A stretch of DNA of 64,000 bases from positions 806,001-870,000 of the forward strand of contig OZ287068.1 of the NCBI GenBank assembly GCA_965645245.1, written 5' to 3'. Shown in pieces: positions 3,081 through 47,348 of the stretch (position 1 is its first letter; every line of letters starts with the position of its first letter). The translations under genes and the position numbers were made by a program. This DNA is from Massalongia carnosa. Lineage: Eukaryota. Below the pieces are notes generated by a model. The model saw nothing but the letters and a program-made list of their open reading frames with translations. It did not search any database and was not told where the DNA came from.

Positions 3081-3557
3081 CGTGGATAGCTAGATAATAG
3101 AACGTTCGGAAGAAAAAATACTGTATAGAGAGAGAGATCGCGGTGATGGATGTCGCTAGGCAGAAAGATGTGAGAGACCGCATGGTGAAGAGAAGTGGAA
3201 AGGTGAGCCTTAAGTAGGAGAGGGCGTCTACTTTTGGCTCCCTTCGTGGCTTAGGCGCCAGGTGGGCTGGAGCTATCCTCGTCGGTATGCTCACCCGCCT
3301 TCCTCAATCGCATACCAGTATGCAAGGAAGAGATGGCTATCCAGCGGCGGAGAAGTGAGCCAATGGTCCATGATTGCGATATTGTTGGAATTGTGCGTGA
3401 TGTGGGAGCTATAGCAGGTGTGGGTGCGAGATCGTGGAGAGCGGCGACGAGAAGTGGTAGGTGCTGGACCAGCCGGTGTGCCGGTGAAAAAGGTGTCGAA
3501 GCAGCGCCGTGGGATGCTGGAAACGGCCGCCTTTTTACCGAGACAAAGTCACAATCT

Positions 3558-3831
3558 TGTCATGGTGTGAACATGAGACGTGGAGGTTCATTGAACAGGT
3601 CCATCTACGGCAGATGGACTTTAAGGTTTAGTGCCGGCAGATGATCGTTGTGGTTAGACTGCGAGCTTACCGAGTTGGGCTTAGTGTCCCTTTTCAGGAG
3701 TTATAGGAAATCTCTGCGAGCAGTTACTGTTTTCCTACTTGTGTTCGTTTCGTCAGATTATCATGTAGTATAGTCGATAACAAAACACTGTTCCACTACA
3801 TGGATAGGATCATTGGACTCCTACCGTGACA
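3558..3831. mobile_element. Solo LTR (TGTCATGG...CCGTGACA)
   Basis: TG...CA termini with 7/8 inverted match; flanks AATCT/GATCT (4/5 match); shares TCAGGAGTTATAGG with the adjacent LTR. Confidence 0.65.
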
Positions 3832-4292
3832 GATCTCGATGAAGAGACGTTTATTGGTGTCACGGAGTGACGAAGCATAACGGCTGGCTAGGTGGCTAGT
3901 TAGCTGACGGTCACAACGGAACGGGAAGAAGTAGTCTTCCGAGGGCGCCAAGTGCAGTCATGAGGTAATGGCAATGCAAAAGTGCATGCCGAAGGCATGA
4001 CGAAGTCGACATGACAATCAGGGGCAGGCGATGTCCGAAGGTGGACTGGCTCAGTTATCAGGAGTTATAGGCGTGTCTATTCGTTCTTCTGTTTCTTTTC
4101 TCCTTGTCGAACGTCTTGTCTATTTAGCTAGACAAGTCTCACGTTTGCACCACCTGAATTACTACACGCCCTCGCACCGTGACATAGAAGTAGCCAAGCT
4201 TCACGTCTTTTAGTCCGTGTATGCTCGATGAAATGACGAAGCCAATCTATGACTAGATCGTCATTTAAATAGCCGGTCTCGCTGGTCCCAAT
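3832..4292. pseudogene. Fragment of a pogo/Fot1-type DDE transposase, split by an LTR and partly inverted
   Basis: 3832-3857 (+) joined to the reverse complement of 4185-4292 reads DLDEETFIGTSETGYLNDDLVIDWLRHFIEHTRTKRREAWLLL, which resembles the segment before the second catalytic Asp of pogo transposases. Confidence 0.8.
3858..4184 (+). mobile_element. Solo LTR, 327 bp (TGTCACGG...CCGTGACA); strand is relative to the second copy
   Basis: Perfect 8-bp terminal inverted repeat; a near-identical reverse-complement copy lies at 4293-4514. Confidence 0.85.
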
Positions 4293-4514
4293 TGTCACGG
4301 TGCGAGGGCGTGTAGTAATTCAGGTGGTGCAAACGTGAGACTTAATTGTCTAGCTAAATGGATAAGACGTTCGACAAGGAGAAAAGAAATAGAAGAACGA
4401 ATAGACACGCCTATAACTCCTGATAACTGAGCCAGTCCACCTTCGGACATCGCCTGCCCTGATTGTCATGTCGACTTCGTCATGCTTTCGGCATGCACTT
4501 TCGCATTGCCATTA
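4293..4514 (-). mobile_element. Inverted second copy of the 3858-4184 LTR, truncated at the Fot1/pogo insertion
   Basis: Reverse complement of ~3966-4184 with few substitutions/indels; stops at the TA at 4513-4514. Confidence 0.9.
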
Positions 4515-7500
4515 GAAGAGTTGCGGGGGCAACCGCCCAAAAAGTGCCCCATTGCTCCTTTTTCATAATTTATTCAACAACCACACCATATAAATCGTTA
4601 TAAAAGCAATGGATCGAAGCGTACGCTCTGGGAGAGCCCTTTTCAGCTCTGGCGAGTGCTAAAAATCTAGAAGTCGTCCCATTCAATATCCCCGATTCGG
4701 TTTGTTTTGCACTCAACCACTAATACATCCTCAAATATCGCGAACCTACCTCTTCACGCCATAGAACCGGTATCTCTCTATGCGAGGTCGATTCTAAAAG
4801 CCATTTTGGGTGGATTTTGGTTCGGGACAGCCCAAAAATCGACTCTTGGATGCGGGCTGGAGTGGATATTTGGTGCGAAGTGGATTATAAAAGTGATGCT
4901 CTTTGGTCAGAGCGTGGAGGCAGAGAGTGGTGGACAGGGAGCGTCCTTTGGTGGTGCCAGGACAAAGGAACAAGTGGAGGGAGTACTACGGAAGGAGACA
5001 GCCAAGAAGGCGGGCAGGAGGGGGAGGGTTCAAAAGCTTAAGGCGTATCGAAGCTTTTGAGTGGCATTTGCAATTCACTCTTTTGAACGATGGCGGAGGT
5101 ACTTTTGGGGAGTTTTGCTAAGGAATTTGGTGTGTTTTTATCCAGAAATACTTGTTCGCCGTGGACGTCTTATGGCCACTTTATGTACCTACCTTCGCTC
5201 CTTCCTAATTTGACTTAAAGTTGGTTTAAAGTCTCACACTTATTTGATGTATTAAACCCGAGTGATATTCCCCGTTTTAAATAGAGATGAAAAGGAACAA
5301 AGCTTTTGGTACAACTACAGGCGAAATCTAAGTACTACTAGCATTACAATTTGAAAAACCCCCACCGCCCACAACCATCAATTGCCTTGTTAATTGCCCT
5401 TTGGTTCCCATATAACTCTGGCCTTAATAACTCTGCCACGCGTACTCTTGAGTGGTTCTTTTGGAGCTTCCTCTTGGCCACCTTGCGGAGGGTCCACCGG
5501 CCCTGCCTGTACTCCTTTGCCCTTTAAAACCTGCCTTTCTCATTGATTCCTTGGCCTTAGAGGCTTGCCTAAGGTTCTTTCTGATGGGTGAGAACTCAAT
5601 TTCGAGGCGCTCTCGAGCCGTAAACGTCTCCGTATCGGTAGGGTTAAGGGAGAGCTTGGCGATAGAGTTGATTATGTGGTTTTGAGTGCCAACCTGGGTC
5701 TTCTTTGGCGATGGTGGTAGTGTAACAGCCTCCCCTCCACATAGTCGAGGCGTCCACGAGAGGAACTGCTTCCAAAGAGTATTCTCTTGACGTTGGTTCG
5801 CTTTCTTCCATGACTCGCAAGCTTTGGCCTTCTTGGCCTGTCGTTTCTCCTGCTTTTCGGCCTCGATTCGCTCCGCCGTCTCCTTGTCCATAACCTTGGC
5901 CTCTCCGTAGGCCTCATGACTTCTCCCTTTCTTCTTCCCCTTTTGCTTTCCAGCCTCTACGAGCTCCGTAATAGTTTGCCCTTGAATCATACTTAGAGCC
6001 ATCTTCTGGCCACATGCTTTAGCAAGCTTAAGGGCAACTTGCTCCCAGTAGTCAAACTCCGCTTGAACGCTAGCTAGCTTTGCTCCGGCCAAAAGCTTGT
6101 CGATGTCCACGATATTAGCAGGAGTAGCGGCCGAAAGGGGTACGAGAGCAGTTCCATCTCTAGTTTTTGGCCTGCTTCCACTTGTAGACGTCGCCGAGGT
6201 TGAAAGGAGTATGACTTTAAACTCATAATTGAGGGTCCAGAGCTTGGTATCGAAGAGGGTATTTGTTGAAGGACGACAGACGGGTTGTAGGGCATATGGC
6301 CAGTAGCGTGCCACGCTTTAATGACATTCTCTGGTGTAATAGCCTTTACTCGAGCTTCTTGAATTAGCTCTAGGAAGTCGACTTTTGATATTTGATATGT
6401 AATATTGAATCGACTCCGTTCTCGAACCGCTGTCTTGTAGTAGTAAGCCAAAAGCCTAAATACCCCGACGTCGAGAGGCTGTACAAGGTGAGTAACGTGA
6501 GCTGGCAAGCAAAGACAGAGAATCTTATGCTCTAAACAAAAATCGATAGCTTTCCCTGTAAGATGAGACCCATGGCTGTCGAATATAAGAAGTCTCCACT
6601 TGCTAGGAGTCGTTGGACGAGTCTCTGGTTCAAAGCACCGCTTTAACCACTCAAAACAAAGCTCATTATCTGTCCAACCATTCTCCGAGACTGATATATG
6701 GCCGGTTTTAAAGGCGTCCCACCAAGCTTTCATCTGTTGTTTGCCCTTGAATATAACCCATGGTTTAAGAGACCTCCCACTAAGCCCAATAGCTTCAATA
6801 AGAGTCACCCACTCTCGATTCCCACAAGCCGTCATGTACTGAGATATCTCCTTTTTGGGTATTATAACCCTTGTCTTGCCAATGACCCCCATTGCAACTC
6901 CTTTGTCATCCATATTATATTGGTTTTCGGTGTCAATATCGTACTGATCCACAGTATTCTTATGGAGCTCGAGGTAGCGTAGAATTGTAGCGGGATCTGT
7001 ACCTAGAGTACGCTCTTTTTCGATAGGACTGACGAATTTTGACTTAAGGCTTGGGTGACGGTCCATAAACTGCTGGATCCAGGTGTGCCCTAGGGGGTTC
7101 ATGTCGCCCTTCGCTTGAAGGAGCTCGTACGCCATCTTTAGGAGCTGTTGATGGGTGGGTGGATATCCCCAGCTAGCTAGAACGACGATATAACTGACAA
7201 GAACGTCTTCCTCTAGCGGAGTGAGCTTTTGCATGGCTTGGTTGGCTGCTTTTTTTCGATATAGCACCATTTTTTCGATCCCGTAAAGTCTCCCATACCA
7301 CCCCTTGAAGCCTAGCTGCTTCACGAAGACTTATAGGCTTATTAGAAGCTTGCCCAATGGTCCAAATCTCTAGGGCACGTTCCATTCGAGTGTCGTAGTC
7401 GACGTCTGGTGGGGGAGCTATATCGTCAGGGTCGTCAAAGTACTCGGGGTTTGGACGTTTCGGCTTATAATTTCGAACCATGATGATAGCTAATGTTGAT

Positions 7501-9540: not shown

Positions 9541-11978
9541 GCTGAAGAGAACGTTGTCACTAATTAAACCTGAAATTTTTGGGTAGATACTCTAATTATT
9601 TACACCGTACTGGCTGTTTAAGCACAGAAATATTTTTTACTAGTTCGGGTAACTACCCCAGCTCCACGAAGTAAAATTTCTCGCAATCGATACGCCTAAA
9701 TGAGTTCAACGATATGTAGCTAATTAGGCGTTAAGATAAAACCTGGCCCAAACGTTCAATCTCTATTTATCACAAAATACTTCCAACGGTAGGGCGGCGG
9801 AGTGACAATCCGGAAATTATGATTTTCCGCGGTGGGTTGGCCTTACTCAAAAATTCTACAATTCAAACCCCTGCTAGCGCATGTCACCTCCTTAAGTTTA
9901 CTGACTAATGCTCTTTTATTCATGGCTGTTAGTCCTCTGAGCATATCCAAAATACGGTGGACATTCTACAATTCGGTTCGAGGGGAGTATCATATCCCAT
10001 GATGCGTAGCATCTACCACAAGCCTCTCCAGGAAGAGAACTCAAGGAGGCCCACTCCACAAAAATGGCAAAAGGGGTCATGTTCTTTAGCAACCCTGGAG
10101 GGAAAGCAAAACTTCAGGAGTTGAATTCCCACAACAGCCACAAGCCAGAAGGTTGATAAAGGGAGATCTTTATAATGGAGAATTTCAATATCGTCGAGGC
10201 GGCGAAAGACCAGAGTTTGTTATTCTGACGTTGCGTCTCAGGGGCTATTCTCAGCGATCTTTAGTTTACCGGACCAATGTTATCAAAGCACAGATACTAG
10301 AACCCGAATTTTGATTAAAACCTGGCATGTATTTATATTCCTTTCGTCAAAAACTATATTTCGGTATGACGAAAACCTGTGCTCTCTCCGCTTTTGCCTC
10401 TACCATCATCTTCGATATCTTCTCTGAATACTCTTCTATCATTCCTAGCCGTTCGGTCCGAAGATATTTTGTTAGGCGACAACAGCAGATATCGTATTTT
10501 TTTTATTAATTTTTTGAGCCTAGGCTATTAGAATGGAAGCTGCAGATAAGCACAACCACAGATTAGTGAATAATGCAGATATGCCATCAGCAGTATTACC
10601 GAAGTTATAGATGACAAGAAATGCTGACTCGATCGCAGATAGGCCTATCTCATGGACATGAGCCCATTGTTTCTTTTTACTTGGTTGTTAATCAAAGCGA
10701 ATAACAAACATTTTTTAAACTAGTAGATCGTTTGGATATTTTATCTACCAGATTTTTCTCATACCTTATTCAAGAACTGGTCACTCCGAATCAATTTATA
10801 TGTAGTCTTGAGAATAGTTCTATCAACTTTGTCGAAACCTGAACGAATTTTGTTTGCATGTAAGAGCTTGATGGATAAGTGAAATCTGAGTAGTACATGC
10901 CCTTTATCTGCTGATCTTTATTCGGGTTTCCTTTTCCTTTCTTCCTCCTACTCGACTTTTATCTCTTTAAACCCATGTCATTTAGCCTGCTTACTACCCT
11001 GATTCATATAAGCGTATCTCCCCTTCAACGTTTTCCTTCCACTCTCAATATCTACGCCCTTACCTCTTCTGGACTTGTCTTCCTACCTACCCTGACTTTT
11101 ATCTCTACTTGTGCGTCTTTTCTTTGTTTGTTTTCTCTTGATGTAGATTCGAGAAATCTCATAAATAAAAAAGGGGGATATGCGAGTAATAGCGGGAGTA
11201 GCTAGCATATGCATTTTATTTTCGGTTTTGAACAGAACCTTATATCAAGTATGAGTGGTCTTTTTCGGGTTAAGCTTCTATATAAATGTAACTATAACTC
11301 CTACTTTAAGAAATGCTTCACTCAAGACAGAATTTCATCAAGTCTCGTATATACTTTGCCAGTGTATTTCCAATAACAGCCCCAACGCCGTGAAGGAGAC
11401 AGTGCTATTAGCTACTAGCTGGGAGATCTCGTCTTGAGGAAGAATATGAATGCATATGCCCATTATCTAACCTCTGGAAATCGGATCTCACACGAGAGTC
11501 TCCGTACAACCCAACGAATGGCATTGAAGTTATTAGCTTAGCAATAACGGCGAACCCGATCAGATACCTTAGAGCAACGCTTAAGGAGATCTGAATAGAT
11601 TGGCATAGATGGCGAGAGATGATGAACGAGCGCAATTCCAGCAGAGATGTCTGGATGACGTTGCCCTTTAGGTTTTCCATCTGACCCGGGTTTAATCAAA
11701 CCACAAGGTCTTTTCCCAAGTCGTTGTAGGATTTTTTATATCTATCTATCGCATAATAGCCTTGATGAAGCTTAGATTTACGCCTGAGCAACCTGTCGAG
11801 GACGTTTCTCTGTAGAAGTTTGTCTTTTCGACTAGTATAGTTAAGCGACTGACACTGAATTAGCAACTGAGTAGTTTTGATTATTCAATAATTTAATGAA
11901 TAAATTTTATGATTTGCGAAATCTATTTTGTCAAAGACAAATGTGGCTGAAACAGTTCGAGATTGTCTCCTCATGTGC

Positions 11979-12081
11979 GATTCTGTGGTCTAGTCGTATG
12001 ATTGTCGCTTCGGGTATCGAACTCAGACGTGAAAACGTCTAAAATTGTGACAGGTCCCGGGTTCAAATCCCGGCAGAATCC
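11979..12081 (+). tRNA. tRNA-Pro (anticodon CGG) with ~31-nt intron
   Basis: Acceptor GATTCTG/CAGAATC; anticodon stem GTCGC/GTGAC with loop TTCGGG[intron]T; T-arm CCGGG-TTCAAAT-CCCGG; T5 run at 12085. Confidence 0.85.
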
Positions 12082-13521
12082 AGCTTTTTGCAGATTCTAC
12101 ACCTACTACTTACCTACCATAGCACTAGATGAGTTGAATGTTAGGTTTTTTTGTTTGTTTTCGGTGTGCGAAGTGCATTTCGCTCCTGCACGGAGTAGAA
12201 GGCAAAAATGGAATTCTCCCCTATTTCATCGTCCTAGCATTATCAAAGATGAGTAGACAAGTCGTGCATACGAGTACAGTAACTTTTTATTGGACTACAG
12301 CCCTAGTTACCATGCTCAATGTGTCGAACCCATAAGCGATATCTAAAATAACTTAACCTACATAGTTCATCCGTTTCATGAACTCGCTGCTCTTCTCATT
12401 AATTTTTATATTATGAAATTGGGACATTCAGAGGAAATGAAGTAGCCAACTTTTGGCAGACGCATGGATATCGGAAGACGAGGAAGATGCTGCTAGATGA
12501 TAGTGAGAATGAGATGACAGAAAATATTCCCTTGAAAAGCGCCGAGAAAGAAACCCAGCGGCACCTTAAGCTAATCACCAGAAGAAGATTTGTAAGGTAC
12601 CTTAAGGGCGGTTGGGGTTTTCGGACATGGTCATGGAATGGTCTCAAGATCCCGGACATGTCTTCGCTAAAATGGGTACACCGGCAGGTTCCCGGTTTGA
12701 ATGTTTTTTTGAGCGCTTTCCTGATTGAGATGACTCAACATTGTCCTGCACGTGTAAGATAGCTTAAAATTCTGCTTGTGTCTGATGAGAAATATCTGCG
12801 GATAATATAGAGTCTGAAATCATTTTGAAAATATTATAGTCTTGAAAAGGATATATCTTAGTGAACATTCATATTGGTATGAACAGTGCTTGCAGTAAAA
12901 AAGCATCTGGCAATGATTTGGAGACTGTCTCAGTTTTGACAAGATCTCAAGACCTTCAAGATCGTGTTCCGGATAAAACGATCAGAAAACAATCTTATAA
13001 AAGAGATATCACGTTCATGCAACCTCGTTACAGCTGAGTTGTATTCGGGTTCACATGATGTATTCGCCCAGTTGATGGTTAGAGAAACAAGTTATTGATT
13101 TAGTGACAGCTTCTAATCTACAGCTCTATGAATGCTATCATCCTCATGCCATGTTTCTCGTTCTCGTTGCTGTCTCGCACGATCTAGTCTTGAATCACTC
13201 CATCGAGTCCTTCCCGTACCTCCTCTCACAACATGTATGAAACTAATGAAACAAGGCAGACAAGAGACGTGCCTTGAGGATCTGAAGAATAAGACTGTTA
13301 GTCTGAATTGCAATATGCACAGAGAACATAACGTACCAAGTGCCTATGTAGAAGATAGGGTAGCCTAACGCAACAAATAAATTAGTCTCGGTCCTTTCAT
13401 ACAAGTTTGAATGCGAGAGATCAATCACCAAATTTATGATGGAGAGTGTCAGCAAAACTCAGCTGTTCTGACCTGACAAACCCTTCTCGCCTGAGGAGAT
13501 TCCAGAGGAGACTTCTAAGAC

Positions 13522-13577
13522 TGCCTTCTCGGGGGCGTCCTTCTCGGAGGCGTCCTTCTCGGAAACGGCCTTCTCCA
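13522..13577. repeat. 15-bp tandem repeat (CCTTCTCGG core), encoding EKAVSEKDASEKDAPEKA on the minus strand
   Basis: About four units visible. Confidence 0.7.
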
Positions 13578-13664
13578 ATAAAGCCTGCTTTGGCATGACT
13601 CTAGGTTCTCTATCGTCTGTTAGCTGTAGTTGCATCATCATCGTCAGCAGAATGGGAATAACTC

Positions 13665-16600
13665 TTACAAAACTCCAGCAGCATTGAGTATGCTCAAACA
13701 TTGCTTGACATGTTGTTCCTCCACCCGTAATTTAGCTTTGATGGCATTCGACACTTTGCTTGGTAATTTATCATAAGTGACCTGAGGACTAATCCTCATA
13801 TATTGCTGATCTTGACCGAACCGAGCATGAAAGAGCAGCCTCAACGCTCGATCAAGTACTTCGATGTCGTCCAAGTCCTCGACAGTGTAGACTCTTGTCG
13901 GTGACAAGCTCAACAAGTATCGTAAGTTCATTTCATCTTGATTGTATTGCTCCTGCTTGATGGAAGTTAGTTTGCTGTAATTTTGTCTCAACTTCTTGGT
14001 CGTTGTCGTCTCCAAAACAGTATCTTTCAAGGCAGTTATCTCATCTCCGTCTCCATCACTTTAAAAAGCATCATCACTATCATCCAATGTCACCTCGGAT
14101 TCCTCGTCATCGTTCTCCTCTTCGTTCTCACTGTCCTTAAATGACGAGTCTTCCTCAAACTGATCTGAAAATTCTTCGTCCACATCTTCATTCATGGATG
14201 CTTTGCCCTTCAACTTATGGCGCTTACCTTGACCATACTCTTGATAAACATCATCTTGCAGCATTGTATCCGCGAATCTGTCAAGTCTCAGACGTTTTCG
14301 GGGTGTAGGATTCGTGACTGTATCGAGATCAAGATCCAATGGATCTTGCACCGTGATAGCTAATCTACCGCCGGTCTCCTCGTCAAACTCGACATTCATC
14401 GAGTTATTTGAATCCTCTGTGGGAAGAAAATTCTTTTCCTTCAGAATCTCGTGTCCTCTCTGACTCTCGTGTGCCTCTTTTACGTATTTGTTTGACTCAT
14501 TTAACAAGTCAACTAGTAGGTTCTGCCCTCTGACGAGAAGGATCGAGTGGCTAAGTCCACCACGGCCTTGTCTGTTTTCTTGGAGTCTCGATATTGATCA
14601 TGAGAATTCTTTGTTACAACTCGAACAACCAACACGGGTTCGGTTTGAGAAACCTGCATGAAAATGCAACGATTAGACTTTCGTATCGGTACGAAGAAAG
14701 GTCACGCTCTTTTCAGATAACATACCCGGATTATTCGAGATCAAGCTTGAATTTCTGACGGTGCATTGATTGCTGGCGTTGCCACTAAAACCCGACAACA
14801 ACATCTATCCAGATTTACTCCTTGTGCCGACACCTGATACATTATTATCAAAATCAGTAAGGAATCTTTAGGATCGCTGAATCTTTTAACAAGATTCACG
14901 CGCTCTAAATCCGTCAATCCAGCGTGTAACACTTCGGTCTCCACGTATGTAAAATTACACACGCTATCCCAGAAAAAGGCGTTGAGTGGTACATCTTCTG
15001 TAATCAATAGCTTCCGTGGCTTGTCCGTAACGATATGAGGTAATACATAAGTATGAATTTGATATAGTATGGACTTCATGGTGGGAGAACCGTAGGTCAG
15101 AAATTTGAGTTTTTCCGAACCAGTAGTAACATCAGAGTCTCCTTCTCGTTTCACAAGATTAATGATATGATGAGCAGTCACGCCTTTTGCTCGAAATCGG
15201 TTGATATCGTTGACCAAGGTGTTATGGCCTATTTTTCGAAGCATGCGGTCGAGTCTACTGAGAAGAAGGGAGGCACTGGCGAGAGTTAAATGTCGTAATG
15301 GTGCTATGATGTGTGGAAATTATCGGCTCCAGCTTTCTTGATAGCTGTAATTTGTGGCTTCTCCGTCTTCTTGCCCTTCCAATCTTTTATGGCTTGAACA
15401 AATTCCCTGCATCCATAAATTAGCTTTTATCTGCTTCTCAGATTCATATCGATATGAAGAATAAGCTAACCGAGCGTGAGCTCTATGTACCCATTAGGAC
15501 TCCGCTGCTTCTTCTTCTTGATAAGTGAGCTCAACGGTTCTAACTTCGTGGCTTGGGATCATGGAGCGCATAGAAACAGTTTCATGATCATTGATCTTCA
15601 GGATGGAGGCAGTGGAGCGGCGAATCATTATCAGCTCGTCCATGTAGTGATAATGTTTTGCAATAAGCTGCACATCTTGAGTGAGCAACAAAGCTTCGAT
15701 TCTGTATGACAGTTAATAAATGACGAAAAAGAGGTCGAGATTCGATTGTGCATGCCTCTTAGGATCCATGACGATACGTCGTTTAGAATCCGTTTCGGAC
15801 AACGACTGAATCGCTTCAAGCTATGATAGGACTCCGCCGCCTGCTGCATCAGCCATTCGAAGTCGGATTCATCAATATGTCTTGTTTTACCCATGGCCAT
15901 AAGATTAATAAAGGTCCGAGTATGTCCTAACAGACTCGTTAGAGATCATCAGCCCTTTTCATATCAATATGAAAACATTACCAATTAATCGTTGATGACG
16001 AGTGTAGCGGTCAAAAACCAGTGTACCTCAGCCTCGAGCTGCTTGATACTGGCAAAGATCTTGGTGCCAGGATGTCGCAATTTGTGGCCCTCATCTAAAA
16101 GAACTGGTCCAAATACTCCTGTCCATTTAGAATTAAAGGTTTTCTTTTCTCTTCCACTTTTGCTCAATTTCGTATGTACAGAAAGAGTTCTGCTCGCAAA
16201 AGTATCGTAAGATGAAAGTATTACGACCTGTGAAGCGGTTGGATTGCTTTAATCAAAAATATACCGCAAATGCGGAGGCCAATTCGTCAGCTTTCTGGGA
16301 GCTTCACGCATCGCTGTTGCTGAAACCCAATTGATAGCAAATTTAGCGTTAATGGGTCTGTCTCCATGTGCGATTATTAGTGTAATGGTTGGGAACTGTA
16401 TAATTTCTTCTTGCCATTGATGCAAGACAATTCCACTCGGAGCAATGCAGAGTGCCGGTCGATGCGCAGCTATGATGTTCACGTCTCTCTCTGTCATGCA
16501 TCGCGCGTAATACGCCAGAAAAAGTAATGCTGTATAGGTTTTTCCAAACCCCATTGTGTCAACAACTATTCCACCAAATGTTTGAATACTCTCTAGTTTT

Positions 16601-17255
16601 TTTGCTGCCTTGGCCAGTTCGGGATCATTGACGCGTCCCGAGTCGATAGGTATTCTCCCACATGATCGCTGTAGCATGAAAACTGCTCCATTTATCTGAC
16701 TGTCAAGAAAGGAGACTTTGCAGTCTCCGATGAGGGTACAAACACTTCTGTCAAGCAGCTGTGCTTGACCGTGCTTCGAAATGAACTTCATGCCGAGTAT
16801 TAGCTTGCAGATAGCAATAGGTGGACCGGTCTGTGATGCGCTGCCTGTAAAGGCGTTTTGAATGTCGAAATATCGGTTGAGATCATGAACGGAATCGGGC
16901 TTTTCAAGACATGTTAGAGACAACTTCAAACTGATATGAGATTGAATAAATACCTCAGCTGAGAGAAGCGCGGTCTCGCTATCAGTTTGAGCTTGTTGTA
17001 GCTCTTCTCGCACCTTTTATTAAGCTTCAAGATACTATTATCCTTCAAGATACTATTATCCTTCAAGATACTATTATCCTTCAAAGCCTTCGGCATCTGA
17101 CCGCAGACTTTGTCCAGTACATGATGTTGCCAGCGTAGCAGACCTTCTTCGGTAAAAACATCAAAGTTTTCATGATATAGAAGCATTTCCGAGCGTTGCG
17201 TTGAGTCAAAATATGACTGCGGAATGGATTTTTTTTCGAGCAATCGTGGATCCAT
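13665..17255 (-). pseudogene. SNF2-family (SF2) helicase/ATPase, spliced, with stops and frameshifts; acidic C-terminal region; ends approximate
   Basis: Motif I GGIVVDTMGFGKT, Ia ALCIAPSGIVLHQWQEEI, II VLLDEGHKLR, III WFLTAT, V SAQGVNLD, VI QA*SRIIRVSQ. Confidence 0.82.
17025..17084. repeat. 18-bp perfect tandem repeat CTTCAAGATACTATTATC x3 (LKDNSI on the minus strand)
   Basis: Direct reading. Confidence 0.95.
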
Positions 17256-18678
17256 CAGACCAAAATTGCCGCAGTTTATTATGCAAAGACGGCGAATAGG
17301 ATCCTTCCATTAAGCTAGGGTCCATGTTTTCCGTGTCATTTTGCATTGGCATAGTGTCCTCGAGCGCTTGTGAAGTTTGTGACATCTTCTCGAAAGCTTC
17401 ATCAATAGATCGAGTGCTCACTGGATCGATCACAGATCTCACAGCTACATCGTTGTCTTCCGTCACCTGAATGTCTTTCAGAATTGCCAAGAGTGGTCCG
17501 TCATGCTCATAGATTCTACTTATCAAAGGACGAACCCTGACAAGAGTTTGACCTAGGGTCAGAGATCGCGATCTTTGATCACGTCCAAAAAATATGACCT
17601 GTCCGCAGTGACCATCATGAATAATCCCATATTTATCATTGCCACAGCGATACTGCACAATGTCAGAGGGGGAAATAGGGGATGAATCGGGAAATCTCGC
17701 AAAATCAGTGGAACATGTGCGAATAGAAGAACCCCAACTGTTTGAGTGCCAGTATTCCGAAGGACTATCAACGATCTCTGCCATACCGATATGAATGTTT
17801 CGTTGAGGCGTGGCTGAAAGTAAGATACTGATGACAGTTCGAGTATCAAAGTAATAGACGTTCGCTTGAGCCGGTCTTGGTGTTCCGGTGGGTTGTTTTT
17901 CTCGTCGTACTGATATCGCTGCCTTCTGAATGGATGGAAGGGGAAGGCGCTTACGGCACCAGGAGTGCAAAGTTGATAGTCGCTTTGGCAAATTTCGCAC
18001 TTCATGAATGTCTAACAGTTGCAAAACTTCGAGCAGGCCATCATAGGTGCGTCGCTTGATGCCTTCTTTATCACACCAGAGACCAAGAGCCAAGCAGAAA
18101 TCCGATATTTCTCCTCGTACTGGGCGGGAGGGCACCCGGATATCATCATCAATCGTGCTTTCAGAAGCAGAAGGGGCAAACTCGTTGAAAGACTCAGCGG
18201 TGTCTGTGCTTTCTATATCAAATTCCGCGAGTTGATTGGATGATAATGTCATGATAGCATTTGAAGATATTAAGCCGACAGCAAAGGCCGATGTATCAGG
18301 GATTGAAGTAGGTCGAGTATTAACCTTTTGAAACTCTTCATCAGTTTCCCGCTCATAATCACTATTTTGATCGAATGCCGTCTCTATATCGGCTGGGAAA
18401 TTATCTTGAACGTGTTGTTCAGGAATTTGATTAGACGATGATTGAATTTTATCGAGATTCTCTATGGTTCTCTTCTTATGCGTCATTGCTATTGGTTCTG
18501 AGCTCTGAGTCTGCTTTTGCTCCTCATGAATATGTGCAGAATTGTGTTGATATGAAGAACCGGCTTGCATAGACTCATGATCGGGGAAGTCTATCGGTTG
18601 ACTTTTGAAAGGCTGTGGGTTGGCCTGTGGGACACTGCTTTGAACAGTGGATGCTGAAACAATCAATGCCTTTTCCAC
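17206..18678 (-). CDS. Putative N-terminal portion of a fungal CMC/Plavaka-like transposase; no catalytic core recognised
   Basis: 490-aa ORF inside the TIRs with FCLALGLWC...LPKRLSTL, VYYFD, HIGMAEIVDSPSEYWHSNSWGSSIRT, ISPSDIVQYRC blocks. Family resemblance is from memory, not a search. Confidence 0.5.
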   Translation of the reverse strand: MEKALIVSASTVQSSVPQANPQPFKSQPIDFPDHESMQAGSSYQHNSAHIHEEQKQTQSSEPIAMTHKKRTIENLDKIQSSSNQIPEQHVQDNFPADIETAFDQNSDYERETDEEFQKVNTRPTSIPDTSAFAVGLISSNAIMTLSSNQLAEFDIESTDTAESFNEFAPSASESTIDDDIRVPSRPVRGEISDFCLALGLWCDKEGIKRRTYDGLLEVLQLLDIHEVRNLPKRLSTLHSWCRKRLPLPSIQKAAISVRREKQPTGTPRPAQANVYYFDTRTVISILLSATPQRNIHIGMAEIVDSPSEYWHSNSWGSSIRTCSTDFARFPDSSPISPSDIVQYRCGNDKYGIIHDGHCGQVIFFGRDQRSRSLTLGQTLVRVRPLISRIYEHDGPLLAILKDIQVTEDNDVAVRSVIDPVSTRSIDEAFEKMSQTSQALEDTMPMQNDTENMDPSLMEGSYSPSLHNKLRQFWSDGSTIARKKIHSAVIF

Positions 18679-18910
18679 AAGAGGAGGACCCTGGAAACTT
18701 AATTCATCAAGGTCCGGTTTATTCAGACTGATATGAAGAAGGCTTACTGCTGAGATGATTGAAGTAGTGTCAATGGTTTAGGCTTTCTTCTCTTCCTCAA
18801 AACATGACCTTCATCGATCATCATATTCTCCGTCACATCATCCTGAAATACATGACGAGGCATCGTGTCTTATGACTGAGTTCAATTCTGTGCGCAGGTG
18901 AGGTATTCTC

Positions 18911-20337
18911 ATGAAGAACTGCTTGTGCGTTGATATTTTAGTTCTTAGGGCTTTAGCACACTGTTTCAGAACATTACCATTCTTCAGGCTTTCTTCCGAT
19001 TGCACTATCGTTCATGCTGATATCACAAATACAATCATGAATATCTCATCCTCAAATGAAGAAGTCCTTGAACCTATGACACAATCCGAGATAGAATCAG
19101 GGCCAATAGCGGCAGAAATATCAACAAAAGAGGCGGAGAAGACACGCCATTACGTCGGAATGGAAAATAATAGCGATGCGGTAATTCGCGGGCTCCATCG
19201 TGTCAGCTGAACATATATAATTTCTATCTATGTTTGGGCAACTCTCCCCTCGCTGCTGCCCTGCTGGCGCTCAGTTTTGCTGAGGGCCCCTCCTATAATG
19301 GCTTTGTTTTGGCAGCAGTGAGGGGAAAAACTCCATCTACCTATGCGGCTGACTTAGGGAGTGGGTGGGTGGGCAAAAGACCTTTTGGTGCTGAACTCCG
19401 AATCAATGGTGATGATGAGGAGAAGAGTGCTAAAAGGCCATCTATTTATGCCCTTTCTTTCCCCTCCTTGTCCAACTATTTGGACATCATCCTCCTTCGG
19501 CCTTCGTTGGCTATCCACGGCCTGCCTCCACTCGGTCCCGTCATTACCTTTCGCCCTAGCCGAATTACTATTGGAGGCTGCTTTGCGGCCATTTGCGCTT
19601 CGTTATGGCAAGTTGGACGCAGATCAGATAGCGCATATCGCACGTACTGCAATCAAGGGAAATGTGGATGACGAAGATATATATTTCAGGAAAGGACTCA
19701 CCAAAGCGCAGTCCAACGTTTCAACGTGGAAACATCGCTCTCTGACCTGTATGGAAGTATGTAGCTTGCTATTAGCGTTTATACTCGACTTCTGAATTTT
19801 GTTAGGACTATGTGAAGTCTGCGATGAGGAGAGACAACCTAGGGCTGCTGGAATCCGAGCATGACTCGAGCAGATTATTCAAAGCTTTTGCACAGAAATA
19901 CGATCCTCACGATGCTGAAACTGTTTTTCCATGGGCTGCAAAAGATTTGATGTTTCATGAGTCTTCAAAAAAGGGCGTAATGCCTCGAGGACCCTATTGG
20001 ATTAAAGGTACGTGACAAGGCATGGGAGAACTGATGATATTTACATACTGATATGAAACAAGTGTTTTTTCTTAATTTAGCGGTGAAGACCAAGTTGTTC
20101 TTGGATGCCCCCAGAGCAGAAGGGACAGATCGAACCTCCCTGCTAGAGTTCTATGATACGTTTCCCCAAATGGCGAAATACCAAAACATCAAGCCACACC
20201 ATTTCAAATTGAAACCAGCTCGGACAAAACGTCTGAGAAAGGAATCATCAGACAAACCAGAGACGAAGGAATTTGGTACCATCATGGATGAGATGGGAGG
20301 TCACCGAGGCCGAGAACGAAGACGAGGATCAGTTTAG
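18911..20337 (+). CDS. Spliced gene of unknown function inside the TIR element (5' part uncertain or disrupted)
   Basis: ORFs 19361..19795, 19812..20015 and 20053..20337 appear linked by GTATGT (~19757) and GTACGT (~20008) donors and downstream AG acceptors. Confidence 0.55.
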
Positions 20338-20774
20338 CTCGTGAACGCTTTGCTTTTTTTGTACTGGTATGAAGAAAAGATGTTTTGCTTGAAGTTGTTG
20401 GTGCAATCCTATTTAGCTTCTCATAACTTGACCGAAGAAAATGTTTTGCTTGCACTTGGCTCTAACACAAACTGAAACTTGAAATCTTGTCAACCAAATA
20501 TCACACTGTTTCAAAGCACTCCTGATTCAAAAGAATCTTGAGCTAATCTGATGAAATTCTTCAAACGAAGATCGTCCTGAGATGATGTTGTTAGAAACAT
20601 GCATTCCACGTCATAAGATATCTTACATATAACAAAGTCACGAGATTGCAAAATATCTGAACACTTCTTGACTGACGTAATCACTATGTAGATAGACTAG
20701 GACAAGAACGTTCTAGTGGATAATATCTTGAGACCATCTCAAGACCATGTCCGAATACCCCCAACCGCCCTTAA

Positions 20775-22200
20775 GGTACTTAGGGTAAAGACAAATCACA
20801 AGGCTGAAGCAAGATCTTGACAATGCCAATGATGATGACGATTTCGAGGAAATGGTGAATAGCATAGCACATCTTTACACAAAATCCCCTAGCGACAAGC
20901 AAGAAAGACAAGATCGGTTGGCCACTACAAGTCGTGATGCCACAGTCCCCTCCCTGCCTTGCTTGACTGAAGTAGTTCTCGGTAATATTAGTAGAAAGGT
21001 ACAGCGGGATCATCAAGATAGACATGGAGCATGGTTCCAGAGGCATAGGATCGCAAAGACAAAGTCCGATCTAGTATCAATCCTCAAACCCGCAATGCAT
21101 GAGCTTTGCTTTAGTGTTGAAATGACTATGCAGGAGTAATTTCTTTTCGATAAGTGGGGAGTTTCATATATACTGCCTTCATTGAAGCTTCCTTGGTATT
21201 GGACGTGACCAGCATAGTTCTGGTTGGGCTAATTATGCCCATATCATTTAAGCAGTGCTAACCCCAAGAAATGCTATCTATATATTGGACAAGCCAAGTG
21301 CTTCTCTATCATAAAAACAACCCCTCTCTTCATTATCACGTAGCCGACTCTACCGGCATAACCTTTGCATTCATTACCTAACTTTAGCAAACCTATTGGA
21401 CGAGATAGAGGGATATGCTTTAAAAGTGGTAGAAATTTGGGGCTACCTTCTTCTCCAAACTCTTGTACTAGATAAATTGATGCAATTTTTACCTTCAAAC
21501 CTTCCCACTACTCATCCGGAGTACACGTTAACATAGCAGTACCTCTCTATCAATCATTTGGTGCTAATGCCATAAGTGACAAGGAAGACAGACTCGAACG
21601 TGAACCAACAAGGAGCCATCTCTGAATATTTTCCTCGTTCAAAGGATCCGTCCGAGTAAGGTTCTTCTTTGAGAAAAGGTGGCTTACGACGACCTCAGAG
21701 ATTCGGATGACCCTATTTTGAGGGCTTACTATTGCTTCTGGCACCTAAAGGCTACCAAAGCAACGGAGAGAAAGAAGTATGCTTGGTACCAGCGGCTGTT
21801 CAATGACGGGAAGACTGTAAGAACAGTGAGTAATCGACCGCGTCGCTTCGTCTTGAAATATATTCAATTCGAAATTCAGGACGGAAATTTTCACGAAATA
21901 TGAGTTGCAGGTGCCCGTACATCTGCACGCATGTTTTTATATCCGTCGGCTGATGATCTAACAATTTAGGATGGGGTATATATCTTTAAAAAGATAAACA
22001 TAGAGTTAAATTTAGCACGTAGCTCTCCTCAATGTCAAAGGGGTGTCCCACATTATGAACTGAATGCTTGCATAGATAGCGTTCGGGGAGATCGTGAAGA
22101 TGAAATTGTCAGAGATTGAAAAATCCTTTTAGGGGCAAATCGCAAAATGCTGAGAGACACACATTATTACTCAGGAGGCCTGGCTGGGAGAAAAATGGTC
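20775..22200 (+). pseudogene. Degenerate coding relic, apparently continuing the ORF at 12487 that the TIR element interrupts
   Basis: Short ORF fragments 20852..21139 and 21679..21903 with many stops; no recognisable family. Confidence 0.3.
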
Positions 22201-22422
22201 AAGGAAAGCGTGCGGTGGCAAGAGAACAGATGATAATTAAAAACTCAGTGTATTTTAGATATAAGTCGCGATATAATCTGCAAAAACGATAAAGATAGCC
22301 AAAGAGGCGTTGAAAGAACACTTATAGATATGATTGTATTGGTCGTAAATATATCGTTGGTTCTTAATTTAATATATTCAATTTAAATTAAATAAGTAAT
22401 AATGAATTAATTTTCAATTCCA

Positions 22423-22506
22423 GAGAGTGTAGTCTAGTGGTATGATTCGCGCTTTGGGTTCAATCTTGTCTGCGCGAGGTCCTGGGTTCAATTCCCAGCA
22501 CTCTCC
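22423..22506 (+). tRNA. tRNA-Pro (anticodon TGG) with 12-nt intron
   Basis: Acceptor GAGAGTG/CACTCTC; D-loop TAGTGGTA; anticodon stem CGCGC/GCGCG; T-arm CTGGG-TTCAATT-CCCAG; T-run at ~22517. Confidence 0.93.
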
Positions 22507-23240
22507 TCTACGTCACTTTTTGTATTACAAAGTTGGGAATTCTTCGTAATTTGAGTAAAGAGGTGGTCGTATACTAATACTGCATATCTTCTTTTATGTT
22601 GAGTAATTTACATGAAGTCTCCATGGAGAGAATTTCAATTTTTGGCTTTTCTCTTTGATGCCCTCTCTCGTTTTTCTCGAGGTTGCTGATTCGCTGCTAA
22701 ATCCAAAAATGAAACAGGACTTGATAAGAATTGAGCAAGACCCCCCAACTCGAGTAGGAATATTAGTTTGTGCTTCGACTGCCATGCCAGAGTGTCGAAA
22801 AAGGGTCAACTCTATAATTGATTGGCGTGCATGTGAAGGGAAGGGTGGCGCTACTTAAGGTTATGACCTTACTTGAAAGGTCATTGAACAATGGGAACGC
22901 AATGCGTAGGATGCTTGAATAACGCGCAAAGAAGTTTCCGCGTGCTAACTTAGGTTTTCTCGTTTCTATAAAATTCACCAAAGAAATCTTGCTTTATTTC
23001 TGTTTTCTTTTCCACCTCAATAACATCTCTTTAGTGATGATGCTTCTTTCTTATCCCTTACTATCTGAGCCTGGACCTAGATAGTCGGTTACAAGCAGGG
23101 CAAACTTTCAAGCTCCATCTGCAATAATTGTACGAGTATCAAACAGCGGGCCTGTTGCTAAATAGTAGGACCGTGAACGAATATATCTGGTGATAGAGCT
23201 TTATAGAAAAAGCTACCAACGGAACAGAGCATACTAGAAA

Positions 23241-27035: not shown

Positions 27036-29625
27036 TCATTCATCCACCCTTTCCTTCATCATTCCGATTCTCGTCACCCTCGCTTGCCCTTCTTGATCTC
27101 GTTGGCCAGCCCGTTCAAACTGTAGTACTCCTCGCTCGCTATCCAGCTGCTTTGCCATCTCTTCACGTGAACCTGCCCCAGCCCGGCGAGCGAGGTACTC
27201 GATGATGGTAAGTCTTTGGGAGTAATACTGTCGCTCTTTAGCAGGCCATCCTCGTCTCCAGCCGGAACCATAGCTGGAGTTTAACTTTCCCACAGCTGGC
27301 CCAGTGCCCAAACCAACAGTCCACTCCCTCCACAAATCCACCACAGAACAGACCTGTCGATTCAAAAAATAAGAAGACGAGGCCGGAGGTTCGACAGAGA
27401 CGTCAGCGTCGAAGGAAGTAAGTGCACGCTCGGATGGCGAGGGAGAGCGGGTGAGACTATGAGGCCGAGAGCGGGGGCGATGAGAGCGAGGGGTAGGAGG
27501 ATCGTGAGCGGAGGGCCTCGAGGAGAGTGAGGTGGTGGCCGCAGGGGGGTGAAGCAATGGATCGAGCATATTTAGTGGAATCGGTGACGTAGCTCGAGGC
27601 AATTGACGAATCTTGGAGGGGGTCAAGGTGAATGTGACCTTGCCTGTTAGAAAATCATCCAATTTGCCCTCCATCAGACTGAAAAGCTCCTTTGTTTCAA
27701 GAATCCAGCGTTCATCGAACTGGTGAGGCCCACATGCAAATTAAGCACCTGCTGACCCAAGTGAGGCAAGGCAGTACGAATCAAACTGTTTTGATCCATC
27801 TCCTTCTCGTCTAGATGAGCCAAAACATCCGCAGCAAAAACATCATACTCCGGCAGAGAAAACAAGCGATAATTCCACAAAGGATGCTGAGGATATTTCT
27901 GTCGAAGAAGCACGGAGTCCTGCAGAAAAACCACACGAAGATAGTCTAACAGCCTTACGAACTGAATAGTGGCTATATCATCGAAAGAATGCTTCAACCA
28001 CTTGTCTAGAGAAGGCCAGAAAGAAGACAAAAGCTCTGAAGATGGCGTGACTGCTGCTCGAGCGATATGATAGGTTCCAGGATGCTTTGGATCGAATCCA
28101 GCCATACCTCGCATGAATTCTCTAGGCAGGGACGTAAGATAGCCCTTGTGCATGGAGTCGGTAGTCCAATGAGCTGCACGACGTATCTGATCCTCCTGAA
28201 TGCCTTTCAGCTCGGCATACTTTGTTCCAGAACCTCGCCCAGCATGAGTGACCTTGCTATAGGTGAGGCCGAGGGGACTGTACACGCTGTGAATCCCTTT
28301 ACGCTGAGTGGAATCAGAGATTTCTTTGCAGCCGTCTTTAGGAGAGGCTATTAAACAAGAATCGTCAGTCGCATCATATCACTGAATTATTTCATCGAAC
28401 TGATAAAAACAATACAATATAATGAAGGCAGTTTCGAGAAAAAACGATAATTCATTCAAAAAAGGGGTCAAAAGCGGAAAACTTCGAAAGCAGATGGACG
28501 AATTAAGAGCAATTTAGTGAAATGGATTAAACTGAAAGAAAAACTGTGAGAAACGTCGACAAAACAGTGATAAAATGAAAGAAAATCTCCAAAACTCACC
28601 GATCAGGACTCGTGTATTATACCAGTCCTTATTGCTTCTAAAATTCGGAAAAGATTCACCCGATTGCTCCCAACGCTAGAAAAAATACACCGATAACGCA
28701 CTCATACCACAAAGCGAAAGGTCCTTGTGCCTCAGCATCCCATTGTACTCGATGCGCCCATTCTGATTGGTTTTACCATTGCCCATGAGGTAAAGCAATG
28801 CCGGGCAGGGCGAGGGACCCTCGTTGTCAAACATAAGTAGCTGTAAATCAGGAAGCTCGGCAAAGCGACGAGACTCACCCCGAGCAAGAAGAAGGTGTCC
28901 CATAAGATAATCTAGACGTCCTCGTAGGTTACCTCCGAGAATGGAGGTCTTGAAGGAGTGAGACTGCTTCCAAAACTCCTCCAATATTTCCCGAAGGGTC
29001 TTTTCATCATAGCCATCTGCTACCGTTCCTCGACCTCGATCCTCGAAGGCCAGCTTCTTCTTGATATGCTGATTTCGCGAAGAATCCTTCATAAGGGACT
29101 TCAGCGCATTGCCATTGGGATGAGAACGATTATGCTGGCCTCGGGAAACTTGATAGGACCACAGATCTATCAGCGCAGTCTTGTATCCCCTTATTCAATT
29201 GTATTTGAGAGTTTGAGAGTCCTGATCCTCGTCCTCGTCCTCGTCGAGGGCTTGAGCTTTGCGATTTTTCTTTGCCCGGTTCATGACCCTGTCCTGAAAA
29301 AATCGCACCACTTTGGCTTCATGCACAATCTCTCCATCATCATAGTGATGCTCTTCGCAGAAAATCTGTGCCTCAATTAGTCGATTAAAAAAATCCGCAT
29401 AACTTAATGAGAGTGAATTTTAAAAGAGGGATTATTTTTCATATTTTTGTTTCTTTTCTTTTCTTTTCTTTTTCTTTCTTACTTCCATTCCTTGACCACC
29501 CGAGTATACGCGTGATTGGTGTTTTTGGGCCTGCTAATTTGCGTCAAGGCCAGGGCAGAGTGCTGTGCACGAAAATTGGCAGTGTCATTGTCCAGATCAC
29601 GCTGAACTTGTTCGATGGTAGCCAT
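27036..29625 (-). pseudogene. CryptonF tyrosine recombinase (Ndc10-like YR domain plus GCR1_C domain), spliced; one stop and frameshifts
   Basis: MATIEQ...RPKNTNHAY..KEW; LDYLMGHLLLARGESRR; GKTNQNGRIEYNGMLRHKD; KVTHAGRGSG; YLTSLPREFMRGMAGF; GCR1_C-like SVVDLWREWTVGLG...ERQYYSQR. Stop at 28676. Confidence 0.88.
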
Positions 29626-30631: not shown

Positions 30632-30998
30632 TGTCGCGGTTCAACCATATCCACCCAAGGCCAATCAAAGGAAAGTACGGCATCTGCCGGCGCACTAACC
30701 GCTTCCGTTACTCAACCCTTTTAGCAATCATAGGGGCAATCAACGGAGGTCTGAAAGGACTGAAAAGGACGCATCGGAACGACCTTCTAAAGGAAACACA
30801 AATGGATGAAAGGGACAAAGAACAGAAAGACTGTTTGACCAAACTGTTCACTTATTGATGAAGACACAAGCAGCTGGATCGGGCCAAGCGATTATCTATA
30901 TAGACCCTCAGAGAGGGCACCCTTTGCTTGTTTCCTTTCTGCATCTTTGATATTTCTAGTGCATAGCTTCCCAGTAGATAGTCAATTCCACATCCTGG
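30632..30998. mobile_element. 367-bp LTR-like insertion in the Helitron helicase
   Basis: Starts TGTCGCGG; flanked by AGTC (30628-31, 30999-31002); removal restores EAFADWIGKMSYDP. The right end lacks canonical CA. Confidence 0.7.
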
Positions 30999-33553: not shown

Positions 33554-33825
33554 TGTTGAATATCCAATTCCTACCAGCACAATGAACACCTATCAGTTCA
33601 ATGAATATAGCACCTACGGCTGCCCTAGATTGATAGATCATCTACGGAAACCGTAGATGCCGCATTAGGCTTAGTTCCAAGATAAGATAAGATCACCTCG
33701 CTTAGAAGGGTGACCAGTAATAGGAAAAGATTGCTGCATAGCAACTCTTCATCCTTAACATCACGGTCATACATACCTTTATTATTACATAGCCATATAG
33801 CCATAGTCATATACCTATTTCAACA
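33554..33825. mobile_element. Solo LTR (copia-like TGTTG...CAACA) in the Helitron
   Basis: CTTTC on both sides (33548-52, with one extra T before the LTR, and 33826-30); removal restores WSMRLRSNARERERDRLCQRAFY. Confidence 0.88.
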
Positions 33826-34194
33826 CTTTCTCTAGCATTGGACCGAAGCCGCATACTCCAATCTCAGCCATGTTCGCCATGCGGAAATAAAAGAACGTAA
33901 TGTAAAGGCATATAAGCCGCATGATTTTGATCAATCCGCTTCAAAGAAGTTCCCGTAACTCCTGCAACACGCTCCGTCAAAATTATATCGCGTTTGCAAG
34001 GTTCTCCGTATTCATCAGGAATAATACCGGCAATCTCGTCGCTGATGGGAAGATTACTGCGTTGTCGATCCGTCCCCGCTTCCATGATCAATCGCATTTG
34101 CGGATTGAGAACAACTCACAGATCATCGGTTATGGCCGCATTCTCCCGCAAAGCCTCGCTAGCGGTTTTGTAAAGCCTAATAAAGGGATTCATA

Positions 34195-47257: not shown

Positions 47258-47348
47258 CTAACGACTCAGCGAAGAGAAGGTATAGTGAAAGCGACTTGTC
47301 GAACCTATCACCTCCATTGAACTAACGACTCAGCGACGAGGAGGTATA
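47258..47348. repeat. 27-bp direct repeat (47258-47284, 47322-47348), 25/27 identical
   Basis: CTAACGACTCAGCGA(A/C)GAG(A/G)AGGTATA twice. Confidence 0.85.

Follow-up and report, generated by a model that had tools for sequence, protein, structure and literature searches.

The window analysed here is a stretch of 64,000 nucleotides from Massalongia carnosa (contig OZ287068.1, positions 806,001 to 870,000), and its segment 12606-20770 carries the remnants of a transposase gene and of a SNF2-family ATPase gene between matching inverted ends. With a probability of roughly three in four, this segment is a mutated, non-autonomous copy, with an internal deletion, of a multi-copy cut-and-paste transposon of a fungus from lichen samples, the family of which pairs a RAG1-like transposase with a SNF2 gene. 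The unit between the two flanking TTAA tetranucleotides measures 8,165 bp. Its left terminal inverted repeat (12606-12650, plus strand) starts with GGGCGG and matches the right one (20725-20770, minus strand) at 41 of 46 aligned columns, with a single 1-base gap, in good agreement with an earlier note on this DNA that had described imperfect repeats of about 45 bp. When the flanks are included, a perfect inverted match of 21 bases is found (12597-12617 and 20759-20779), of which about 1e-5 would be expected by chance in 9.5 kb according to our own estimate.

Six of the ten public sequencing runs listed contained the stretch or part of it, one being labelled as a lichen metagenome, and contigs of four runs were aligned to positions 10500-22900 at an identity of at least 80%. 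In run X1 the flanks showed depths of 816-862, whereas most interior bins reached about 42,000-62,000; the corresponding values were 24-27.5 versus about 360-945 in X2 and about 2-6 versus about 27-118 in X5. Summed contig depth does not equal copy number and is read here only as 'many copies'; in that sense the element is multi-copy, its interior being tens of times deeper than the single-copy flanks in three runs. Contigs carrying internal-deletion joints were detected at about single-copy depth (13048 to 20325, 14874 to 15471, 15495 to 16664, 16779 to 16986 and 19975 to 20585), and the variant that joins 13048 to 20325 retains little beyond both ends. Taken together, the depth pattern and the deletion variants give the usual picture of a cut-and-paste family. 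No further copies or fragments of the element were found within the 64-kb window, and the element showed no signature of repeat-induced point mutation (TpA/ApT 0.60, (CpA+TpG)/(ApC+GpT) 1.39), with similar values in other parts of the window.

Both gene remnants lie on the minus strand and meet at 17512-17514, where about residue 421 of the transposase is joined in frame to about residue 294 of the SNF2 protein. Homology to the transposase relatives P0001 and P0003 ends at 17515, and homology to the SNF2 relative P0152 begins at 17511. Past 17515, P0001 (89% identity to the transposase part) goes on as transposase, and P0152 has 293 further residues N-terminal to the junction. The contigs of X1 and X2 on either side of 17512-17514 continue with other letters, the translations of which are the continuations of P0152 and P0001. 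Read from these joins, the window copy is a deletion derivative in which everything from about transposase codon 421 to about SNF2 codon 293 has been lost, including the whole catalytic core.

Besides this large deletion, nonsense codons and frameshifts mark the copy as decayed, just as the earlier note had it. A TAA codon is present at 18778-18780, where P0002 reads leucine, and another at 16249-16251, where P0153 reads proline, and a TGA at 14741-14743 is replaced by TGG in most or all other contigs. Single-base frameshifts of the window copy were located near 17229, 17014, 15817, 15316 and 14526; every contig of X1, X2 and X6 has the base that restores the frame at 14526, and some of the contigs have it at 17229, 17014 and 15817.

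The transposase remnant (17515-18862, minus strand) was recognised by homology and lacks the whole DDE core. Its main open reading frame (ORF), at 17206-18777 on the minus strand (523 residues), had been noticed before as a transposase-like N-terminal ORF, and its relatives show that it is transposase-derived: it had no Pfam match, and its residues 180-420 approximately matched 506 cluster representatives at E ≤ 1e-3, 35 of them at E ≤ 1e-30. By pairwise alignment, what remains is a helical part resembling the RAG1 DDBD (about 18111-17800), followed by roughly the first half of a BAH-like domain (about 17790-17515). Long relatives (684-1,315 residues) extend into the catalytic core that is absent from the window, and among the 150 relatives listed no part matched elsewhere in the window at E ≤ 1e-5.

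When 23 long relatives were aligned with the window ORF (24 sequences), the core motifs followed the order D421 (FxDxFG), D505 (GDMxQQ), C524xxC527, HxxxH (columns 1372/1376) and GExKH, the first D being invariant or near-invariant across the alignment. An order of D, D, CxxC, HxxxH and E, as in RAG1, is given for the CMCT clade (EnSpm/CACTA-Mirage-Chapaev-Transib-Plavaka) in the accessible part of Kojima (2025; PMC12730594). The 67 relatives of at least 500 residues among the 150 listed were scanned with Pfam, and Plavaka (PF18759) was matched at E ≤ 1e-3 in 11 of them, four of which reached the cut-off of 26.3 bits; the matches covered profile positions 190-320 approximately, and most relatives stayed below the cut-off. 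No Pfam family other than Plavaka was matched in these 67 proteins, neither DDE_Tnp_1_7 nor BAH, and a sequence search of the PDB with the transposase profile gave no match.

The fold was read from a predicted structure of P0014 built with 25 sequences (predicted local distance difference test score, pLDDT, 77.3; predicted template modelling score 0.75). The best Foldseek matches of this model were RAG1 core structures, with an E of 4.6e-7 for mouse RAG1. With VIA-align, the model gave Z 16.2 against RAG1 (root-mean-square deviation 4.9 over 467 aligned residues, model residues 137-979), Z 12.6 against amphioxus BbRAGL and Z 11.2 against HzTransib. Residues 254-446 of the model matched the BAH domain of ORC1 with Z 11.5 (137 of 152 residues aligned, root-mean-square deviation 3.3), and the same segment matched more than 10 other BAH entries with Z 9.6-11.4, including AIPP3, EBS, SHL, ASI1, PBRM1 (polybromo) and DNMT1. 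According to this model, the DDE transposase of the family is RAG1/Transib-like and has a BAH-like domain inserted; the CMCT layout was seen in full-length relatives and the RAG1/Transib fold in the model of P0014, the window copy being itself without that core.

The SNF2 gene remnant spans 13665-17512 (minus strand), with its first 293 codons or so absent. Between it and the left repeat lies a region 3' of the gene (12651-13664, minus strand) with no recognised coding content and a depth equal to the rest of the element. The assignment to the SNF2 family made in the earlier note was confirmed by Pfam, in which PF00176 (SNF2_N) scored above its cut-off of 24.9 bits on two ORFs, 16249-17016 (32.9 bits) and 15985-16248 (26.1 bits). 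Motifs I (GFGKT, 16537-16551), DEGH (16084-16095), III, V and VI are readable; by eye, LTATL and a motif V-like SAQGVNL (14810-14830) could be recognised, as well as a motif VI-like QAxSRIIR.. when reading across a candidate intron of 72 bases (14654-14725). A second candidate intron of this gene lies near 15940-15990.

In a very large protein collection, two word-indexed searches yielded three relatives with the special N-terminal region of this ATPase: P0152, from ENA, which represents a cluster of 18 sequences and is 96-98% identical to the window; P0151, from a metagenome-assembled genome (MAG) of a Peltula sp., 52% identical; and P0153, from a Variospora velana MAG, which shares 37% identity with P0151 and about 42% with the window. 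The predicted model of P0153 reached a pLDDT of 33.7, too low to use. A cluster labelled 'SHPRH family' was suggested by the Atlas with a score of 0.91, which we take as a lead only. A unit of 15 bases that encodes DNSILK occurs three times in a row at 17020-17085, compared with once in the near-identical P0152, and contigs of X5 differ by a 5-base gap near this repeat. Contigs of run X6, about 97% identical, cover 12694-15646, corresponding to the SNF2 3' half; their terminal letters are presumably those of a template-switch cDNA adaptor. One X6 contig retains the 72-base candidate intron, so that, if derived from RNA, it would be unspliced.

As far as the contigs show, the SNF2 gene belongs to the transposon family in this genome. 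The right end equals in depth both the SNF2 3' half and the left end, the 3' end of the gene is about 1 kb from the left repeat that matches the right one, and other copies in this genome have retained an unbroken transposase, the complete N-terminus of SNF2 and an open frame at positions where the window copy is broken; the assignment follows from this equal depth, from the location inside matching ends and from the open frames. With the jump in depth at the repeats, these data bear out the earlier proposal of a multi-copy transposon family in this genome that is bounded by terminal inverted repeats and carries SNF2.

Several results weigh against the reading of the element as a copy of a family that pairs both genes. 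The SNF2 5' half (15468-16709) showed in X1 about one-third of the depth of the rest, which means that many copies are without it. A metagenome search with a 6-sequence alignment returned 34 loci with distant transposase relatives (29-50% identity), and SNF2 was absent from all 34 in tblastn with eight SNF2 queries. Likewise, none of 64 ORFs in the nine longest of these loci had a SNF2 domain in Pfam (98 ORFs of at least 150 residues, less 34 overlapping larger ORFs), and no SNF2 was present in the 67 long homologous proteins. Given this absence beside distant relatives, the SNF2 gene is a lineage-specific acquisition and not a feature of the whole transposase family. Moreover, the presence of the transposase and SNF2 together in autonomous copies is deduced from the chimera and the depths, no full-length copy having been seen. 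Regarding the ATPase, PF00271 (Helicase_C) reached 13.8 bits against a cut-off of 23.5, searches of the PDB with the single SNF2 ORFs found nothing, the sequence being very divergent, and the SNF2 profile gave only weak PDB matches around motif I (E about 1e-3). These matches were to DDM1, Ino80, ISWI and Rad26 and, being this weak, assign the ATPase to no SNF2 subfamily. Regarding the termini, the GGGCGG..CCGCCC ends are unlike the 5'-CA..TG-3' that the accessible part of PMC12730594 gives for CMCT elements in most cases, and if the repeat were longer, the ends would read TTAAGGG.. or GTACC..

Part of these data would also suit a one-off or recent capture, in which SNF2 is a host-gene passenger of one subfamily, passively amplified and without a role in transposition. 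The lack of SNF2 near the distant relatives, the reduced depth of its 5' half and the fact that the SNF2 gene of the window copy is dead all point in that direction. We nonetheless regard a capture of this kind as unlikely, because other copies keep the frame open where the window copy is broken and because MAGs of two other lichen fungi have preserved a SNF2 protein that includes the special N-terminal region, at 37-52% identity; furthermore, the two word-indexed searches found only three proteins with that region, fewer than would be expected if it belonged to a conserved host SNF2 subfamily of the ordinary kind.

A convincing terminal repeat, of 46 nt, was present at just one of the 34 metagenome loci (L025), without a clear target-site duplication (TSD) and unlike the window ends; a candidate repeat of L006 was discarded as low-complexity. 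In locus L005, a piggyBac-type transposase (DDE_Tnp_1_7) with perfect 63-nt inverted repeats was observed at 1795-5105, directly upstream of the RAG1-like relative.

TTAA flanks the element at both ends (12602-12605 and 20771-20774), in accordance with the earlier note; its role as a TSD, which that note had also assumed, was not established and is one of three readings that fit. The inverted symmetry extends outward past TTAA through GGTAC to about 12593 and about 20782, and because the flanks, GGTACC on the left and GGTACT on the right, prolong it, the true ends are not fixable from a single copy. In a first reading, TTAA may be a 4-bp duplication beside GGGCGG ends; this leaves unexplained the inverted match of the next five flank bases, the chance of which is about 1e-3 and smaller if a further three bases are counted with one gap. 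In a second, TTAA may lie inside the ends and be enclosed by a 6-bp duplication, GGTACC/GGTACT, with five of six bases equal. In a third, longer terminal repeats may reach to about 12593 and about 20782, without a clean duplication.

The ends of the flank contigs bear on this choice. If k = 31 is assumed for the assemblies, a contig should stop 29 bases past the start of shared sequence. The flank contigs end inside the repeats, at 12643 and 20751 in X1 and at 12621 and 20750 in X2. The left end in X1 (12643) lies exactly 30 bases past a G-run variant at 12613 that is private to the window copy, a spacing that supports reading the contig ends in this manner. On the right, the ends at 20751 and 20750 place shared sequence out to about 20779-20780, and on the left, the X2 contig (12621 plus three unaligned letters) places it out to about 12592-12595. 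Shared sequence that reaches beyond TTAA favours, though indirectly, the reading with longer terminal repeats.

No empty site was found in the contigs of X1, X2 and X5. Flank contigs of X1 and X2 run into the repeats, thus showing that the insertion is present there, and X5 had short flank contigs only, none of which cleanly bridges the site. The idea of a single host exon interrupted by the insertion was dropped, as whichever way the left and right flank ORFs are read, a stop parts them. A contig at single-copy depth joins 12619 to 20742 in X1 (770) and X2 (26.8), with only 22 letters on its shorter side; it could be a tiny end-to-end derivative located elsewhere, a footprint, or an effect that the inverted ends have on the alignment.

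The TTAA on both sides had led the earlier note to place the element beside piggyBac and Kolobok. The GG..CC ends do fit the RR..YY rule of Kolobok as quoted there, and the window ORF matches no Pfam transposase family. In contrast, the layout in full-length members of the family is D, D, CxxC, HxxxH, E, and their fold resembles that of RAG1/Transib; in Pfam, the relatives matched nothing but Plavaka, and that weakly, and DDE_Tnp_1_7 was matched neither by them nor by the ORFs of the element. In addition, TTAA may itself lie within the terminal repeat, considering the symmetry to about 12593 and about 20782 and, with k = 31 assumed, the shared sequence deduced from the contig ends. A piggyBac- or Kolobok-like element specific to TTAA, or an entirely new superfamily, is thus very improbable, and the transposase is of CMCT type by motifs and fold.

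Equally improbable is an accidental chimera of two separate repeats, with SNF2 coming from another multi-copy element or gene family and joined to a one-gene transposon: both 'parents' of the junction exist separately and the depths of the transposase and SNF2 parts differ, but the SNF2 3' end lies beside a left repeat that matches the right one, both ends are equally deep, the variant joining 13048 to 20325 keeps just the two ends, and the junction resembles an ordinary internal deletion between two genes of one element in the same direction.

For the preferred reading, a deleted copy of a family that pairs both genes, we infer an autonomous form of about 11-12 kb with two genes in the same orientation between inverted ends of about 46 bp. 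The first gene would encode a CMCT-type DDE transposase of about 1,000-1,300 residues with the BAH-like domain ahead of the catalytic core, and the second a divergent SNF2 ATPase of about 1,500 residues with a family-specific N-terminal region. By analogy with RAG1/Transib, the transposase would bind the terminal repeats, excise the element and insert it by a short staggered cut, with TTAA as a duplication of 4 bp provided that the first reading of the ends is right. The window copy would be mobile only with transposase supplied in trans by intact copies. The BAH-like domain may tie the transposase to nucleosomes or to a histone mark.

The SNF2 ATPase would most probably be a helper, encoded by the element, that works on chromatin or on DNA-protein complexes; the earlier note had suggested remodelling for transposition or the countering of silencing. 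Regarding its precise task, the leading candidate, still somewhat short of an even chance, is to provide access at the ends or at the target, for instance by clearing nucleosomes. A role in countering silencing is a less probable option, closely followed by the absence of any role, the protein being a passenger, and a contribution to repair after excision seems the least probable of the four. A broader proposal, which we put forward tentatively and consider doubtful, is that RAG1-like transposons of one lineage in lichen-forming fungi have been equipped for chromatin twice, with a BAH-like reader inside the transposase, common to a large fungal family that Pfam does not annotate (at least 506 representative clusters), and, in this lineage, with a SNF2 remodeller of their own. 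Such an element would read the chromatin state for site choice or access, and remodel nucleosomes to move or to resist silencing.

The region upstream of the transposase gene (18863-20724, minus strand) contains plus-strand ORFs without detected relatives. A divergent, spliced third gene of unknown kind had been claimed in the earlier note, and this claim was abandoned. Five plus-strand ORFs at 18902-20337 matched no Pfam families, and that at 20038-20337, the only plus-strand ORF searched there, had no match in the Atlas. The largest (19174-19671) lies almost wholly within a segment of 389 bp (19181-19569), which is a nested short high-copy repeat missing in some copies of the element. The joint that corresponds to its absence (19180 to 19570) was found in four contigs of X1, one of X2 and one of X5, and the depth of the segment in X1 was 379,429 compared with about 53,000 in the neighbouring bins, about 7-fold that of the element. 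The ends of the segment form weak inverted repeats of 8 bases, without a clear duplication.

Fungal in its gene content, the window holds many mobile elements, represented by pogo/Tc5-like, Tc1-like and Helitron genes, along with ordinary fungal genes (SUN, Ist1, a TFIID subunit and an aminotransferase). At 34192-36059 there is a complete-looking Tc1/mariner-type element with 75-nt inverted ends (91%) and an ORF of 566 residues containing HTH_Tnp_Tc3_2 and DDE_3, and a pogo/Tc5-type element occupies 53021-55345, its DDE_1 ORFs, split over two frames, being enclosed by inverted ends of 49 nt (96%); a second DDE_1/HTH_Tnp_Tc5 gene is located at 5424-7330. A Helitron Rep/helicase ORF of 862 residues (Helitron_like_N and PIF1) occupies 30982-33570. 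A perfect 46-nt inverted pair, 1.2 kb apart, encloses an ORF without Pfam match at 61575-62905 and may represent a small non-autonomous element. Nested near-perfect inverted repeats of 114, 58 and 51 nt form a foldback of about 550 bp at 3966-4514, a tandem array of a 17-base unit is present at the window start (1-378), and ORFs with NDC10_II and GCR1_C were detected on the minus strand at 27036-28378, in two overlapping frames.

The window copy itself is dead and, as a locus, ordinary. Cut-and-paste transposons usually encode one or two proteins, and those that carry chromatin enzymes show how mobile DNA handles host chromatin and silencing. Fungal KDZ, Plavaka and EnSpm elements with TET/JBP genes are one example, and the unpublished Entons would be a second. 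The locus provides a concrete fungal example that can be checked, with a SNF2 ATPase known so far only from assemblies of lichen fungi. If the pairing were true in full-length copies, it would constitute a natural system in which to study whether a remodeller aids a RAG1-like enzyme on nucleosomal DNA, and it would give a named home to a large set of unannotated fungal proteins.

Among known systems, the closest named kind is the Enton of Kapitonov. According to the accessible part of the 2012 Asilomar meeting report (PMC3520738), fungal Entons and Intons have 5-6 conserved proteins and derive from En/Spm and IS3EU, and the accessible part of Bao and Jurka (2013; PMC3627910) ascribes a SNF2 helicase to Entons. 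The likeness consists of a fungal DNA transposon with an En/Spm (CMC)-derived transposase and a SNF2 helicase as an extra gene; the difference is that 5-6 conserved proteins are stated for Entons, whereas the present copy, which is a deleted one, has two recognisable genes. This comparison is one of descriptions, and no description of Entons was found in the literature beyond the mentions in these two papers. The family had been presented in the earlier note as undescribed: it is true that no fuller description was found, and none in print of a RAG1-like element with a BAH-like transposase and SNF2, but Entons with a SNF2 helicase had already been mentioned.

A second likeness is to the Plavaka and fungal EnSpm elements that carry TET/JBP dioxygenase genes, as described in the accessible part of PMC12730594. 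The Plavaka and EnSpm elements of this type share with the present family the RAG1-like layout with C(2)C and H(3-4)H, a fungal host and an accessory gene related to chromatin or epigenetics, and some relatives of the window transposase give the weak Plavaka matches mentioned above. The accessory gene here is instead a SNF2 ATPase and the host an ascomycete from lichens. According to the same source, Plavaka termini are TGT..ACA with a 2-bp TSD or CATCA..TGATG with a 2-3 bp TSD; the ends here are neither of these nor CAC..GTG, and the possible TTAA duplication is of 4 bp as opposed to the 2-3 bp reported. For CMCT elements as a whole, the TSD is of 2-5 bp, with which TTAA is compatible, although the 6-bp GGTACC/GGTACT (five of six bases) or no clean duplication fits the window too.

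With Transib, RAG1 and ProtoRAG, the family shares the fold of the transposase core and the order of the catalytic and zinc-binding motifs. It differs from them in that sequences agree at no more than 9-10% of residues, the transposase contains an additional BAH-like domain, no RAG2-like partner is present, the termini are others and the 5-bp TSD was not seen. The association of RAG1 with the histone-reading RAG2 would nevertheless be a parallel to that of a BAH-like transposase with SNF2, if the latter is true. The likeness to piggyBac and Kolobok is limited to TTAA on both sides and to the GG..CC ends, the transposase being of another kind; Kolobok is set apart here by motifs and fold, not by direct sequence comparison.

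The accessible part of a chromatin survey (bioRxiv 10.1101/2021.11.30.470311) mentions gene models that link transposable elements with SNF2_N. Such fusions, and the chromodomain integrases of fungal Gypsy elements, likewise bring a fold that reads histones or nucleosomes into a transposition enzyme, or link SNF2 to a transposable element; in the present family, in contrast, the reader is BAH-like and sits in a RAG1-like DDE transposase, and intact copies carry SNF2 as a gene of its own. A single literature search brought up no transposase reported to contain a BAH domain, and the term 'BAH' is not in the accessible part of PMC12730594. The element is real and, in its superfamily, more ordinary than had first been proposed; transposons of its kind, that is of CMCT type with a SNF2 gene of their own and a transposase that has a BAH-like insertion, are little known.

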